Below, in pieces: positions 1,864-5,731 of a DNA stretch of 14,330 nt (position 1 is its first letter; every line of letters starts with the position of its first letter). The notes under the pieces were generated by a model. The model ran no database searches, was not told the origin of the DNA, and saw only the letters and a program-made list of their open reading frames with translations. Both the position numbers and the translations under genes were made by a program. Location of the stretch: the UHGV virus genome UHGV-0200011. One strand, given 5' to 3'. Source of the DNA: a virus.

Positions 1864-1917
1864 TCATGTAAATCTGATATCGTCGCCATAGCTTCGTAGG
1901 TCGACAAAGAATTAAGA

Positions 1918-1942
1918 GCCTCGCCATCGTGCGGGGCTTTTT
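1918..1942 (+). terminator. tR'-like intrinsic terminator
   Basis: Hairpin GCCTCGC-catcgt-GCGGGGC (7 bp including one G.U) followed by TTTTT. Confidence 0.6.
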
Positions 1943-2059: not shown

Positions 2060-2485
2060 ATGCCGAGCAAAGATTACTATCTTAATCGAAGGGCTAGGCT
2101 TGCTAAGGCCGTGGAAAAGTTGGGTGGTCGTTGCGCGAGTTGCGGATCCGAATATTCGCTTCAGTTTGACCGCATAGACCCTTCCACCAAATCAGCAAAT
2201 GTAAGCGAGATGCACTATCACTCAGATTCGGTGTTTTATGCTGAGGTTGAAAAGTGCCAACTACTATGTTCTGCATGCCACATTCAGAAAACCAAATTTG
2301 ACCTTAGCTACTTAGTAGCTGGTGAGCTGAATGGTATGAGCAAGCTAACAATGGACAGCGTCCAGTTCATCAGAGAAAACTACATTCCACGACATAAGGT
2401 TTATGGAGCCAGAGGGCTAGGGAGAATGTTTGGTGTAACACATCAAACAGTGCTTTCAGCCTTAAATGGCGAAACCTGGAAATAA
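2060..2485 (+). CDS. HNH-family (homing) endonuclease-like protein with C-terminal NUMOD-like helix-turn-helix
   Basis: 141-aa ORF with CxxC (C25/C28), a FDRIDP segment, CSACH (C70/C73/H74) and a C-terminal GLGRMFGVTHQTVLSALNG motif typical of phage homing-endonuclease DNA-binding modules. Visibly more AT-rich than flanking phage genes; AGAGGTGG precedes the ATG. Confidence 0.7.
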   Translation: MPSKDYYLNRRARLAKAVEKLGGRCASCGSEYSLQFDRIDPSTKSANVSEMHYHSDSVFYAEVEKCQLLCSACHIQKTKFDLSYLVAGELNGMSKLTMDSVQFIRENYIPRHKVYGARGLGRMFGVTHQTVLSALNGETWK

Positions 2486-2486
2486 G

Positions 2487-2523
2487 CTGCGCGTCAGAGG
2501 TTCGATTCCTTTGCCCGCTCCAG
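2487..2523 (+). pseudogene. tRNA 3'-fragment-like sequence (T-arm + acceptor 3' strand)
   Basis: AGAGG-TTCGATT-CCTTT T-arm followed by GCCCGCT and CCAG, directly after the HNH stop; no complementary 5' acceptor strand is found nearby. Confidence 0.35.
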
Positions 2524-2902
2524 TAAAAGCTTTCCAGTCTGCGATGATGGGTTCCCCGGAGTGACTGGAAAGCGACCTGGTTTTGAATGGGCGCTGCTTT
2601 TTGCAAAATTGCTGTGTGAAAATACTGACCTTTGGGTTCAGCGCTCATCCAAAAGCATCACGTGAATTCACCAACGCTCATGTACTCTCCAGGAAACAAT
2701 AAGTGATTCTGAAAAGTTCCGGTTAGATATTGCCCCGGTCACCGGATGATTTTATCTTTTGGTTCGTGGTGAATCCCCCTATGCGGCGGGGCGTCCAGTC
2801 AAACTTTTTTGTCCAGGTTTGTTTGCGCGGAACTAGTCGGCTGGGGCTGTTCCACCGGGAGGCACCCGGCGCCACCTCCTTGACGGTATTGTTATTTTTC
2901 AT

Positions 2903-2929
2903 GCCTGTTCGTCCGAGCAGGCTTTTTTT
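2903..2929 (+). terminator. Strong intrinsic terminator
   Basis: GCCTGTTC-gtcc-GAGCAGGC (8-bp stem, one G.U) followed by seven T residues (2923-2929). Confidence 0.6.
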
Positions 2930-2960
2930 GCCCGCATTATCTTCATTGAAAACTGGCAAC

Positions 2961-3131
2961 TCAGAGAATCATCCAAATTAAAAAAGCAGCAACGAGAGCG
3001 ATTACTAATACATTCTTCGCTTTTTCTCTTCTGCTGGCCTTCACAAAAGGATTCACTATCCGGCAGTGGCTACACACAAGTGATTCTGGGTTAATTAACT
3101 TTCCGCAGTAGGGGCAGGGCTTGATAATCAT
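2961..3131 (-). CDS. Small zinc-ribbon protein with C-terminal transmembrane helix (56 aa)
   Basis: Hand translation of the minus strand: MIIKPCPYCGKLINPESLVCSHCRIVNPFVKASRREKAKNVLVIALVAAFLIWMIL. CPYC-x10-CSHC zinc-ribbon spacing, basic linker, then a 16-residue hydrophobic tail. Not in the ORF track (under 60 aa). No clear Shine-Dalgarno upstream, which lowers confidence. Confidence 0.35.
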   Translation of the reverse strand: MIIKPCPYCGKLINPESLVCSHCRIVNPFVKASRREKAKNVLVIALVAAFLIWMIL

Positions 3132-3338
3132 TGGTACTAATTAAGTTGTGAGAACGTAGTCTCATTTAACCACATTTATCGAGTTGTTTTACTAATGGTC
3201 TAGTTATTTCAGACATATTCATCAATTTCAGGCTCACGGGAATCATCCGCTACGTGCTTTGTTGATAAATCCAGCCCGTGAAGCCTGACCCTTTTCAAAC
3301 ACACACACAGCGCCATCCGAAAAATCGGAGGTGAGGCT

Positions 3339-3617
3339 ATGACCAGAATGAGCACCATTTACAGCAGACTTTCATATGGAACAGGCACCACGCTGACCGG
3401 CTGCGGTGTATCAGCGAAGGCATATGCCGAAACAGCAAAAACAGCAAAAGAGGTGTCCTGGATGTTGGCCGACAGAATTGCAGGGTTAAGCCTGAGCGAC
3501 TGGGCAATTATTGTCGGTATCGCATGCACGGTAATCACCTGTGCAGTGAACTGGTATTTCCGCTGGAAAGAACGGGAGGATCGGCGCAATGGCTATGTCT
3601 CTAAAGCTGAAGAATAA
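3339..3617 (+). CDS. Holin, P21 S-type pinholin-like, with dual-start motif
   Basis: 92-aa ORF with a Gly/Thr/Ala-rich first hydrophobic segment and a second TM segment (WAIIVGIACTVITCAVNWYF) followed by KEREDRR, resembling S21 as recalled. N-terminus MTRM gives two in-frame starts (3339 and 3348) separated by a basic residue. GGAGGTGAGG precedes the ATG. Confidence 0.75.
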   Translation: MTRMSTIYSRLSYGTGTTLTGCGVSAKAYAETAKTAKEVSWMLADRIAGLSLSDWAIIVGIACTVITCAVNWYFRWKEREDRRNGYVSKAEE

Positions 3618-4137
3618 ATTGAGCGCAGCGGTCGTTGGTTTGATTCTTGCCGGGGCTTCCGCACCCGTGATTCTCGATCAGTTTCTGGATGAGAAAGAGG
3701 GTAACAGCTTGACAGCATATCGCGACGGCGGCGGACTCTGGACCATTTGCCGTGGTGCAACAATGGTTGATGGCAAGCCAGTAGTACAGGGCATGAAGCT
3801 GTCAGCTGAGAAATGCGCCCAGGTAAACGCCATTGAACGCGACAAGGCGCTGGCGTGGGTTGACCGAAATATCAAAGTACCACTGACCGAACCACAGAAA
3901 GCGGGTATCGCTTCTTTCTGCCCATATAACATCGGCCCCGGAAAATGTTTCCCGTCTACGTTCTATAAGCGAATTAATGCTGGCGATACGAAAGGAGCCT
4001 GTGAAGCTATCCGCTGGTGGATTAAAGACGGTGGCCGCGATTGCCGCCTGACCAAGGGCCAGAAGGATGGATGTTATGGGCAGGTAGAACGGCGGGACCA
4101 GGAAAGCGCACTGACGTGCTGGGGGATAGACCAGTGA
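3589..4137 (+). CDS. SAR endolysin (T4-lysozyme-like, GH24 muramidase)
   Basis: N-terminal signal-anchor-release type segment (LSAAVVGLILAGASAPVIL) then E-x8-D-x5-T catalytic spacing (EGNSLTAYRDGGGLWT), resembling P21 R21 as recalled. Start overlaps the holin 3' end. Confidence 0.85.
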   Translation: MAMSLKLKNKLSAAVVGLILAGASAPVILDQFLDEKEGNSLTAYRDGGGLWTICRGATMVDGKPVVQGMKLSAEKCAQVNAIERDKALAWVDRNIKVPLTEPQKAGIASFCPYNIGPGKCFPSTFYKRINAGDTKGACEAIRWWIKDGGRDCRLTKGQKDGCYGQVERRDQESALTCWGIDQ

Positions 4138-4637
4138 AGCCGGGTGGCATCTGCATCATTGTGATTGTTGCGTTGGTAGGTTCGTTTCTCGCTGGCAGTG
4201 AGTGGACGAACCGCAGCTGGAAAATAAAGTGGGCTGACCGGGATAGCGCGGAATCTTCACAGGAAGCGAATGCACAGACCGCAGCTCGTATGATTGAACA
4301 AGGGCGAACAATCGCCCGGGATGAGGCCGTTAAAGATGCTCAAGCTCAAGCAGCGAGCGCTGCCGTTACTTCTGCTGGCCTGGCTACCACTGTTAAGCAG
4401 CTGCGCGCCGAAGCAACAAAACTCGCTACCCACATGGACGCCGCAAAGCACACCGCAGATCTCGCCACTTCCGTCAGAAGCAAAACAGCCGGAGCCAACG
4501 CAGCAATGCTTGCCGACATGCTCGGAAGCCTTGCAGAAGCAGCTCGATATTATGCTGGACGATCTGACGAAAGCTACCGGGCAGGAATGACGTGTGAGCG
4601 GATTTACGAATCAGTGCGACTGTCGAATAACCAATAG
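4134..4637 (+). CDS. Rz: Rz-like inner-membrane spanin (i-spanin)
   Basis: GTG 4134 overlaps the endolysin stop (GTGA) and is in frame with the 4041..4637 ORF. N-terminal TM helix ICIIVIVALVGSFLAGS followed by an Ala/Gln-rich coiled-coil-like periplasmic domain. The ORF-track start at 4041 lies inside the endolysin gene. Confidence 0.7.
   Translation: MKPGGICIIVIVALVGSFLAGSEWTNRSWKIKWADRDSAESSQEANAQTAARMIEQGRTIARDEAVKDAQAQAASAAVTSAGLATTVKQLRAEATKLATHMDAAKHTADLATSVRSKTAGANAAMLADMLGSLAEAARYYAGRSDESYRAGMTCERIYESVRLSNNQ
4336..4590 (+). CDS. Rz1: Rz1-like outer-membrane lipoprotein spanin (o-spanin), embedded in Rz in the +1 frame
   Basis: Signal peptide with lipobox LLSSC, then a proline-rich mature region, wholly inside Rz in another frame. 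Start chosen at MLKLKQ (4336); in-frame alternatives exist at 4294 and 4321. Confidence 0.65.
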   Translation: MLKLKQRALPLLLLAWLPLLSSCAPKQQNSLPTWTPQSTPQISPLPSEAKQPEPTQQCLPTCSEALQKQLDIMLDDLTKATGQE

Positions 4638-4809
4638 GCGATTCATGCTGCTAGTTTTCGTCCTCTTGTCGATATGGCTCTGTCGGCAACATGAGGAACG
4701 CCGCTGGCCTTCGGTCGGCTTTAATGTCTCATCGCTGATGCTCATCACCGAGCAACCGGCACGCAGTAAGGGGCTGCGCTGAGATAAGAGCCGAGAATTC
4801 AATCAAATC

Positions 4810-4832
4810 GCCTCGCACTCGCGGGGCTTTTT
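4810..4832 (+). terminator. Intrinsic terminator downstream of the lysis cassette
   Basis: GCCTCGC-actc-GCGGGGC followed by TTTTT; stem arms identical to the tR'-like terminator at 1918-1942. Confidence 0.55.
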
Positions 4833-4844
4833 AACAACTGAGGA

Positions 4845-5048
4845 ATGAGCATGACAGTAGTTCTTACAGCTAAGCAGATTGAAGACCTGGCAGCCTTCGC
4901 GAAGGAAGATGGCCAGCCTCAATACACCATCACCACCGGCACAATTCCTGAATTTGAAGCTGATAATGGTGAGATTATCCCCGGTTATACCGGACTTATC
5001 GCCTATTCAGAATCACTGGATCACGGTGTGTTGCAACTCGACGACTAG
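4845..5048 (+). CDS. Hypothetical acidic small protein (67 aa)
   Basis: ORF MSMTVVLTAKQIEDLAAFAKEDGQPQYTITTG... with GAGGA upstream; the alternative start at 4851 has better spacing. No family recognised. Confidence 0.5.
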   Translation: MSMTVVLTAKQIEDLAAFAKEDGQPQYTITTGTIPEFEADNGEIIPGYTGLIAYSESLDHGVLQLDD

Positions 5049-5092
5049 CGGCATTACAGCAGGCATTCACTGAGTGCCTGTGATAATGCAAC

Positions 5093-5111
5093 AGCCCGTA
5101 CAAAACGGGCT
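5093..5111. terminator. Hairpin between convergent genes (possible bidirectional terminator)
   Basis: AGCCCGT-acaaa-ACGGGCT (7-bp stem) between the + strand 67-aa gene and the minus-strand 204-aa gene, which stops at 5117-5119; a second hairpin CAGGCA-ttcactgag-TGCCTG lies at about 5059-5079. Confidence 0.4.
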
Positions 5112-5116
5112 TGGAT

Positions 5117-5731
5117 TTATCTCTTTGTTGCGTTCATGGTCACATGGTAAACGAATTGGCTAAATTGGTTATCCCAGCGCCCATTATGATTAGCTGCAAC
5201 TAATTGCATTAACGCCTGCATTAACTTGCTGAACAGCAAGATTAACTTAAGTCTGTTTTTTGAACTGTCACTATCTAAGGAAACTTCTTCGGTTAATTGA
5301 TTCTCGGCGTTAAAAATACCCAGTTTTGATTCTTCCATGCTGGGTTCCGTTGGATGCTGTTTAAAGTATTCAGTCAGAGTATCCTTCAGGCTCTGGATCC
5401 TTGAATCAGCAATGCTTTGTATTGATGGATTGTGTGCAAGGTCATTACGCATTGAGTTGATGGTTTTAAGTGATTTCATAAGTTCCGGGGGGATTCCCAG
5501 GTTTCCCGCCATGGATATTTTAGTATTACATTCGATTAAAAGTTTGTTTTTATCTCTTCCAAAGAGATCTTGGCAGTCACAGCATGCGCATATCCATGCT
5601 TCGACCATGCGCTCACAAAGTAGGTGAATGCGCAATGTAGTACCCACATCGTCATCGCTTTCCACTGCTCTCGCGAATAAAGATGGAAAATCAATCTCAT
5701 GGTAATAGTCCATGAAAATCCTTGCATTCAT
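5117..5731 (-). CDS. HEPN-like (R-x4-H motif) hypothetical protein; candidate abortive-infection/defence moron
   Basis: 204-aa minus-strand ORF with a strong RBS (GGAGGA 4 nt before the ATG), embedded in an AT-rich island. Contains SMRNDLAHN (R95-x4-H100) resembling the HEPN / Abi-type motif. Opposite orientation to all flanking phage genes. Confidence 0.7.
   Translation of the reverse strand: MNARIFMDYYHEIDFPSLFARAVESDDDVGTTLRIHLLCERMVEAWICACCDCQDLFGRDKNKLLIECNTKISMAGNLGIPPELMKSLKTINSMRNDLAHNPSIQSIADSRIQSLKDTLTEYFKQHPTEPSMEESKLGIFNAENQLTEEVSLDSDSSKNRLKLILLFSKLMQALMQLVAANHNGRWDNQFSQFVYHVTMNATKR

Follow-up and report, generated by a model that had tools for sequence, protein, structure and literature searches.

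In the present analysis, we describe a small gene on the minus strand of the UHGV virus genome UHGV-0200011 (hereafter the window, i.e., the whole 14,330-nucleotide stretch that was analysed), which by its gene content is the late region of a lambdoid prophage. The gene, at 2961..3131, is almost certainly a genuine protein-coding gene, and its 56-amino-acid product very probably combines a Cys4 zinc ribbon with a C-terminal membrane anchor. It behaves as a self-contained moron-type cassette in the late-operon leader of lambdoid prophages, between the antiterminator gene Q and the holin gene. Taken as a whole, the observations are probably best explained by a genuine moron-type cassette gene whose function we infer. 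The evidence bears out the gene, its architecture, and its likeness to a moron, but lends no support to a toxin role or to one specific to the holin.

The small gene and its product

The open reading frame (ORF) and the parts of its product are as follows:

2961..3131 (-), small gene of 56 codons with an ATG start and a TGA stop (stop at 2961-2963), taken from the ORF list; product MIIKPCPYCGKLINPESLVCSHCRIVNPFVKASRREKAKNVLVIALVAAFLIWMIL
3063..3116 (-), Cys4 zinc ribbon, CPYC-x10-CSHC, codons 6-23, from invariant residues, a sub-threshold Pfam match, and a structural model
3012..3050 (-), invariant P28-F29 followed by the basic juxtamembrane linker PFVKASRREKAKN, codons 28-40
2964..3011 (-), hydrophobic C-terminal tail VLVIALVAAFLIWMIL, codons 41-56, a predicted membrane anchor

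The original prediction, made from this DNA alone, had placed a minus-strand ORF of 56 amino acids with a CPYC-x10-CSHC motif at 2961-3131, and the ORF list gives the same. The zinc motif consists of C6-P-Y-C9 and C20-S-H-C23, with ten residues between the two pairs. The basic linker and 16-residue hydrophobic tail that had also been proposed were borne out by a charge count (net +4 over the ten residues N-terminal to the tail) and by hydropathy, residues 41-56 being 16 hydrophobic residues unbroken to the C-terminus, with a Kyte-Doolittle 15-residue maximum of 3.11.

Evidence for a gene under purifying selection

By length alone, an ORF of 56 codons is unremarkable (the window contains 64 ORFs of at least 60 amino acids), and the case for the gene therefore rests on comparison with other sequences. 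Copies were gathered from NCBI assemblies and IMG/VR, and the loci are referred to here by L-numbers. The prophage copies form two subgroups, a close one (84-100% at the amino acid level) and a diverged one (L026-L032; 53-56%, with products 59-61 amino acids long). Frameshifts or stops in homologs, together with a lack of purifying selection, had been named beforehand as what would speak against the gene; the reading frame was found intact in 36 of the 36 family ORFs recovered, and the ratio of nonsynonymous to synonymous substitution rates is low (Nei-Gojobori dN/dS 0.10-0.26 for most pairs). Between the window and Salmonella, 14 synonymous and 11 nonsynonymous changes were counted (binomial test against the neutral expectation, p = 6e-4); between the close and diverged subgroups, dS is saturated and dN is 0.32 (binomial p = 6e-5). 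Across eight aligned loci, the minimum numbers of substitutions at the first, second, and third codon positions are 24, 22, and 52, respectively (chi-square p = 1.8e-4), and the coding frame is the only one without stops in all eight, every other frame being stopped in some. The sole length change is an in-frame insertion of 9 nucleotides (nt; three codons) within the tail of the diverged group. The Salmonella locus L007 shares 85% identity with the window over the ORF, while its upstream and downstream flanks (40% and 50%, respectively) are unrelated; selection and mobility thus act on the ORF and not on the late-operon leader. As judged from the aligned copies, these comparisons show purifying selection on the reading frame. 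Together with the invariance of all four Cys residues, this comparative evidence agrees with the initial proposal of a real, independently organised small gene for a zinc ribbon with a C-terminal membrane helix.

The same results bear on the alternative that 2961..3131 is a chance ORF, its conservation stemming from RNA or DNA signals of the plus-strand late leader. The omission of the gene from three RefSeq genomes by the Prokaryotic Genome Annotation Pipeline (PGAP), the lack of a Shine-Dalgarno sequence, and the strong conservation of a neighbouring non-coding block (3181-3300) would all suit a non-gene. They are set against the codon periodicity of the substitutions, dN/dS values of 0.1-0.2, a frame that is open in 36 of 36 copies when the other frames are stopped in some of the eight aligned loci, an ORF that is 85% conserved where its flanks are unrelated, and members at 30-50% identity that keep the architecture in unrelated contexts. 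A non-gene is therefore extremely improbable, to the point of being essentially excluded.

Two kinds of length variant were considered and set aside. A 45-amino-acid form in Salmonella was rejected as a sign of decay, the full frame being open there and the short form reflecting the start-codon choice of the gene caller. N-terminally extended forms of 70-75 amino acids (such as a 70-amino-acid form in Citrobacter) were likewise rejected: similarity begins at the shared ATG, which is the only compatible start because in-frame stops lie directly upstream of it in the window and in L005.

The gene had been described as unannotated, which holds for PGAP in three RefSeq records and fails for NCBI and UniRef, where the protein is named and present on 583 contigs. 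PGAP annotates nothing in the 853-bp gap that contains the gene in three RefSeq E. coli genomes with the region at 99% or more. In these genomes (L001, L002, and L003; E. coli KL53, OW1E2, and NCTC9040), exactly one locus_tag number is skipped at the gap (RS09475, RS04835, and RS10310, respectively), which suggests that a feature in the gap was once annotated and later dropped by PGAP. The identical 56-amino-acid protein occurs on 583 public contigs in a collection of 15 billion proteins, and NCBI, UniRef, and JGI list it either as 'DUF2116 family Zn-ribbon domain-containing protein' or as 'predicted nucleic acid-binding Zn ribbon protein'. The DUF2116 name is also given to close homologs in E. 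coli, Citrobacter, and Salmonella. Since an identical, named sequence is present in these collections, the gene is not new to databases; it is uncharacterised.

Protein family, fold, and topology

The family was delimited with HMMER on 1.84 billion representatives, followed by a profile search on 5.8 billion proteins. It is sharply bounded—14 clusters score at least 72 bits, after which scores drop to 42 bits or less and belong to generic multi-zinc-ribbon proteins—and its named members all come from Enterobacteriaceae. Residues C6, C9, G10, C20, C23, P28, and F29 are invariant in family alignments of 13-14 sequences, and the four Cys persist in members with identities as low as about 30%. Sequence conservation is lowest in the tail, yet the tail is hydrophobic in every family member, and six members share the pattern of a hydrophobic C-terminal tail with a basic flank.

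The best Pfam match of the window protein is DUF2116 (PF09889), a family without an assigned function, at 24.6 bits, which is below the gathering score of 26.8; the alignment is nearly full-length (residues 6-56 against positions 6-56 of the 59 in the profile) and keeps the Cys4 knuckles in register. Eight relatives likewise give full-length but sub-threshold DUF2116 matches (18.3-25.2 bits), and one relative, P0076, carries a precomputed 'weak' PF09889 match; relatives P0010 and P0034 have no DUF2116 match at E<=0.01. Against Zn_ribbon_3 (PF13248), the window protein reaches 23.5 bits, under the 27-bit cutoff, and P0005, P0010, and P0053 reach 28.1-30.4 bits. An AlphaFold model with a mean pLDDT (predicted local distance difference test) of 83.7 has beta-knuckles within residues 1-27, followed by a single unbroken helix that spans residues 28-55; the linker forms the start of this helix, and the tail part has a pLDDT of 88-91. 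In Foldseek searches against the PDB, the model gives local matches to Cys4 zinc knuckles of 24-25 residues at 0.8-1.5 A, which are not significant. The features of a tail anchor are present: the only hydrophobic helix lies at the very end of the chain and has a positive flank, and there is no signal peptide. The knuckle and linker are predicted to lie on the cytoplasmic side, because of the positive-inside rule and because Zn(Cys)4 sites need a reducing compartment.

Expression signals

Upstream of the ATG, two elements were delimited:

3164..3172 (-), extended -10-like promoter element TGGTTAAAT, from the eight-locus alignment
3132..3163 (-), predicted 5' leader, short and AU-rich and lacking a Shine-Dalgarno sequence, from the sequence

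The -10-like element was revealed solely by comparative alignment. Across the eight loci its invariant positions are TGGT..A.T and its consensus is TGnT(A/T)(A/T)A(A/G)T, the types found being TGn followed by TTAAAT, TAAAAT, or TTTAAT. It ends exactly 32 nt before the ATG in 10 of 10 distinct prophage upstream sequences, and it is kept in the Salmonella locus L007, where everything further upstream differs. Extended -10 promoters are able to function without a -35 element. On the strength of this alignment, we infer that a sigma-70 promoter of the extended -10 type belongs to the small gene itself. Around the start codon the sequence is rich in A and U and weakly folded (-4.3 kcal/mol, z = +0.55), and such an unstructured region is compatible with initiation that does not depend on a Shine-Dalgarno sequence. 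A distant relative, P0010 (L036), has the Shine-Dalgarno sequence GAGGTG.

These signals could also be taken to mean that antisense transcription is itself the main function, with a constitutive promoter damping leaky late (holin) transcription in the lysogen and the peptide being secondary. The fixed and conserved position of the -10 element, an orientation that opposes pR'-derived transcription, and the lack of a terminator after the ORF, so that transcripts would reach the small RNA (sRNA) gene STnc100 and run on towards Q, would be expected if this were so. Interference alone, however, leaves the protein-level selection, the four invariant Cys residues, the in-frame indel, and the third-position excess unexplained, and as the main function we consider it improbable; the interference and protein roles are not mutually exclusive.

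Genomic contexts and moron character

Phage morons are autonomous accessory cassettes in lambdoid late operons, for example bor/lom of lambda, gp15 of HK97, and stx between Q and S; Juhala and Hendrix in 2000 and Cumby in 2012 are said to have worked on them. The gap between Q and S is a classic cargo site in which Shiga toxin and other conversion genes ride. In prophages, the cassette described here always lies antisense between Q and the lysis genes, directly upstream of the lysis cassette. Being on the minus strand downstream of Q, the ORF of the window is antisense to read-through late transcription, and the coordinates agree with the earlier placement antisense to the late operon just upstream of the holin gene. 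Its neighbours vary from locus to locus: the holin is of the P21/HP1 type in the window, L005, and L006, of the Phage_holin_3_1 family in L007, and of the Phage_holin_8 and 3_7 families in L004 and L040, and the Q protein belongs to PF06323 in the window and to PF03589 elsewhere. At least three holin families and two Q families thus stand beside the cassette, a variety that favours an autonomous moron over a lysis role tied to one holin.

Modulation of lysis had been raised at the outset, and in its specific form the protein would bind the adjacent holin or signal-anchor-release (SAR) endolysin and delay or sharpen lysis in the manner of an antiholin. The gene does lie directly upstream of the lysis cassette in every prophage copy, its product has a single-pass membrane helix as many holin-interacting proteins do, and antisense late read-through would tie its shut-off to the onset of late expression. 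Against this, the same protein, at 84-100% identity, has holins of at least three unrelated families as neighbours, the tail varies more in sequence than the rest of the protein, the opposite strand means that the gene is not co-expressed with the lysis genes, and distant members reside in places with no lysis genes nearby (plasmids, a conjugative element, and an island). A holin-specific role is accordingly unlikely, and we give the antiholin-like modulator a low probability.

The distribution of the family points in the direction of the moron-type cassette. Distant members were found beside BrnTA and a coupling protein of a type IV secretion system, within an island flanked by IS66, close to a SocA/Panacea gene, and on IncF-type plasmids of Enterobacter, of which there are eight; on the plasmids, the conjugative element, and the IS66-flanked island, no lysis genes are near them. 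The window allele is present in 10 of 5,426 complete E. coli genomes. The 50,697 deposited phage genomes of INPHARED gave no tblastn match to either subfamily protein, and the species-representative genomes of GTDB gave no confirmed relative; the gene is therefore rare accessory cargo. The Qin prophage of K-12 is without a window-type gene despite having lysis and ynfU-csp segments homologous to those of carrier loci. In base composition, the ORF (42.1% GC) and its leader (32.7%) stand apart from the window (51.6%), the holin gene (49.8%), and Q (54.6%). The mobile unit consists of the ORF and about 40 nt upstream that carry the -10-like element. A character like that of lysogenic-conversion genes, as had been suggested, fits this anatomy of low GC, a conserved -10 element, patchy presence, and portability between flanks that are unrelated.

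Proposed mechanism and points against it

We propose that the small gene would be transcribed from its own extended -10 promoter, against late transcription. With such a promoter, it would be made in the lysogen without Q and would be occluded by read-through of Q-modified polymerase; autonomous expression in the lysogen seems to us an even bet. Translation would start without a Shine-Dalgarno sequence from the unstructured AU-rich leader, and the product would insert as a tail-anchored inner-membrane protein with its basic linker and Zn(Cys)4 knuckle in the cytoplasm. At the inner membrane face, the zinc knuckle of ~25 residues might then bind a component of the host or of an incoming phage, to the benefit of the lysogen or prophage through exclusion, defence, or the modulation of a host membrane process. 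A membrane-tethered binding module of this kind is a tentative suggestion, held with low confidence because it draws on analogy with other small membrane morons. Tuning of the neighbouring holin is less likely than such a binding-module role.

A number of results weigh against parts of this account, in addition to the omission by PGAP. With regard to the membrane anchor, the tail of the window allele has only 16 residues, which is short for a full membrane span. With regard to expression, a scan for the two-hexamer sigma-70 consensus was negative on both strands over 2300-3700, and no -35 element is evident upstream of the -10-like element. There is no Shine-Dalgarno sequence before the ATG (…CACAACTTAATTAGTACCA-ATG), nor in the other prophage copies of the window type, a weak point that the original prediction had already conceded. 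Beyond the stop codon there is no intrinsic terminator on the minus strand, since the hairpin close by has its T-run on the plus strand only, and with no terminator of its own the gene is missing one classical moron feature. With regard to fold and function, the Foldseek and profile searches against the PDB returned generic knuckles only (of the NZF, RanBP2, L40e, and Nop10 types), none of them significant; PHROGs and NCBIfam gave no informative match and no PHROG of known function; and no defence model of PADLOC-DB 2.0 was matched, the best result being 17 bits for a model of a homing endonuclease, over 22 residues of the zinc knuckle.

Beyond the window, the gene illustrates how length cut-offs and annotation pipelines systematically overlook small genes of prophages, PGAP here dropping a gene under clear purifying selection. 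It also represents a second conserved type of cargo in the gap between Q and the holin gene, which makes it a candidate for a function that benefits the lysogen. The fixed-distance extended -10 element, the portability between unrelated flanks, and a tandem pairing with YnfU homologs (see below) take the case beyond the routine. Its practical value is modest, and lies in a well-delimited 56-amino-acid protein that has a clear domain logic, is easy to test, and can be studied in available carrier strains (E. coli KL53, MS 115-1, NCTC9040, and OW1E2).

Surroundings in the window and the convergent sRNA

The features of the window around the small gene are as follows:

606-1031, RusA
1162-1851, Q antiterminator (PF06323)
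1867-1940 (+), isrJ-like sRNA between Q and tRNA-Asn (Rfam RF01393, 68.7 bits against a gathering score of 37)
1950-2024, tRNA-Asn
2060-2485, HNH endonuclease by RefSeq naming
2486-3338, gap of 853 bp containing the small ORF
2741-2933 (+), STnc100 sRNA, full length, with terminator (Rfam RF02076, 71.7 bits against a gathering score of 47)
2903-2922 (+), stem of the plus-strand intrinsic terminator that ends STnc100, from a terminator scan
3339-3617 (+), holin of the P21/HP1 type, first gene of the lysis cassette (Pfam Phage_holin_2_3 and Phage_holin_2_1; 'phage holin' in RefSeq)
3589-4137 (+), lysozyme
4041-4637, DUF2514 (Rz-like)
downstream of DUF2514, terminase, portal, and capsid genes

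The small ORF is divergent from the holin gene, towards which its 5' end points at a distance of 207 nt, and convergent with STnc100, from which 27 nt separate its stop codon. In the literature, STnc100 is a prophage sRNA module of Stx and lambdoid phages. The layout seen in the window recurs in L004, L005, and L023; in the Salmonella locus L007, STnc100 lies on the other side of the ORF and is divergent, and in the diverged-group loci scanned (L026, L027, L029, and L030) it was not found at the Rfam gathering threshold.

This arrangement would suit a type I toxin-like or abortive-infection membrane toxin, the mRNA of which would be restrained by the convergent STnc100 and the product of which would damage the membrane once released. 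The size of 56 amino acids and the hydrophobic helix fit such a toxin, as does the position of STnc100 only 27 nt from the stop codon in a layout that recurs at three other loci; with no minus-strand terminator after the ORF, its mRNA could extend antisense into STnc100, and some distant relatives adjoin toxin-antitoxin genes (BrnTA and SocA/Panacea). The adjacency to STnc100 is not conserved, however, since STnc100 is divergent in L007 and was not found at the gathering threshold in the four diverged-group loci scanned; constraint is strongest on the Cys4 knuckle and the PF motif, not on the helix; and PADLOC gave no match. We know of no type I toxin with a structured zinc domain. STnc100 was rejected on synteny as a conserved antisense partner, and with no such RNA partner across loci the toxin-like role first suggested finds no backing; a restrained membrane toxin appears unlikely to us.

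Several further observations concern the surroundings rather than the moron-type cassette itself. The non-coding block at ~3181-3300, between the -10 element of the small ORF and the holin start, is 79-87% identical between loci; it is kept although the small ORFs of the same loci are 60-63% identical at the DNA level and their holins do not share a family. K-12 Qin has a diverged version of the block upstream of essQ, and the block has no Rfam match. Directly after the HNH ORF, ~2483-2522 (+) resembles the 3' part of a tRNA (…GGTTCGATTCC…CCA) and aligns with the final 40 nt of a tRNA-Thr that is annotated in E. coli OW1E2, a tRNA-Gly being found there in another strain; apparently the HNH gene has taken the place of the 5' portion of a tRNA gene. 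In L027, a lysozyme near-identical to the product of 3589-4137 has a hydrophobic N-terminus (MAMSPKLKNKLSAAVVGLILAGASAPLIL…) typical of SAR endolysins, and such an N-terminus fits the P21-type (pinholin-like) holin upstream in the window. At 5117-5731 (-), a second antisense ORF of the late region encodes 204 amino acids at 40.5% GC; it has no Pfam family and only weak PADLOC matches of the CARF/HEPN type (E 0.004-0.012), and it is a candidate for another moron. Matches to the isrI sRNA were found at 2497-2593 (-) in L026 and at 2497-2593 (-) in L030, overlapping the start region of the lysis cassette. Finally, 5' untranslated regions of the cspA-thermoregulator type and csp genes lie between Q and the small-gene hotspot in L023 and L026-L030 (~4050-5160 (-)), as in K-12 Qin.

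Comparison with known systems

Literature searches on tail-anchored zinc-ribbon prophage proteins and on moron- or holin-linked small membrane proteins yielded nothing relevant. With DUF2116, described as a 'probable treble clef', the window protein shares the Cys4 knuckle and the downstream region over almost the whole profile, whereas it and its relatives stay under the Pfam gathering score. The only studied protein with a DUF2116 label is DanI (UTI89_RS27595), which in uropathogenic E. coli antagonises DanR, a LytTR regulator (10.1101/2025.06.10.658900). DanI resembles the window protein in being a small, DUF2116-like Cys4 zinc protein on a mobile island (10.1101/2025.06.10.658900), but it has a 33-residue N-terminal extension and no hydrophobic tail, and its match to the DUF2116 profile is confined to the knuckle half (positions 6-33, 19.2 bits). 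Taking the sequence from UTI89, we rejected DanI as a functional model on a BLASTP E value of 0.43, the missing tail, and the half-profile match; among the ORFs scanned, no LytTR regulator lies beside the window gene.

Type I toxins include Hok, TisB, and Ldr as well as the convergent txpA/RatA and bsrG/SR4 types. The window protein is similar to them in being small with one hydrophobic helix, and its gene in having a convergent sRNA right after the stop codon; it differs in its predicted zinc domain with invariant Cys residues and in an sRNA adjacency that is not conserved.

YnfU (b4776), encoded in the cryptic prophage Qin of K-12, is comparable in several respects: it has 56 amino acids and a Cys4 zinc knuckle, and its gene occupies the same hotspot in the same orientation, antisense between Q/cspB and the holin gene essQ. 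It has been seen as a tagged protein on western blots, at the highest level among newly identified small proteins (Weaver et al., 10.1101/511675). The two proteins nevertheless have no significant similarity, BLASTP giving only matches of 8-9 residues around one CPxC knuckle; the knuckle spacing of YnfU is CPNC-x19-CPHC, it lacks a hydrophobic tail (Kyte-Doolittle maximum 0.61 versus 3.11 in the window protein), and its gene has a good Shine-Dalgarno sequence. A tblastn search with YnfU gave no match in the window and a separate gene in L026-L032, which in L027 is located as follows:

L027 3542-3712 (+), YnfU homolog between the holin gene and a cspB-like gene, preceded by a good Shine-Dalgarno sequence; also at the corresponding position in L026 and L028-L032

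In L026-L032, this homolog (86-88% identical to K-12 YnfU) lies about 360 nt downstream of the gene for the zinc-ribbon membrane protein on the same strand, giving the order zinc-ribbon membrane protein gene, YnfU homolog, cspB-like gene, with the two small zinc genes antisense to the late operon. YnfU was rejected as a homolog or allele of the window gene; the unrelated sequence and the tandem co-occurrence identify it as a neighbour at a shared hotspot. It is a doubtful but conceivable extension of the moron-type reading that the small gene encodes a lysogen-expressed effector of an unrecognised type at the inner membrane face, for example blocking the entry of superinfecting genomes or gating lysis or induction, and that in Qin-like prophages it might pair with YnfU as a two-gene antisense module. 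If this were true, it would offer the first functional handle on YnfU of K-12, which is detected but unexplained.

The remaining comparison is with phage morons. No terminator of its own was found at the small gene, and in this it differs from them; it shares with them a site between conserved late genes, patchy presence, low GC, a putative promoter of its own, and an orientation independent of the operon.

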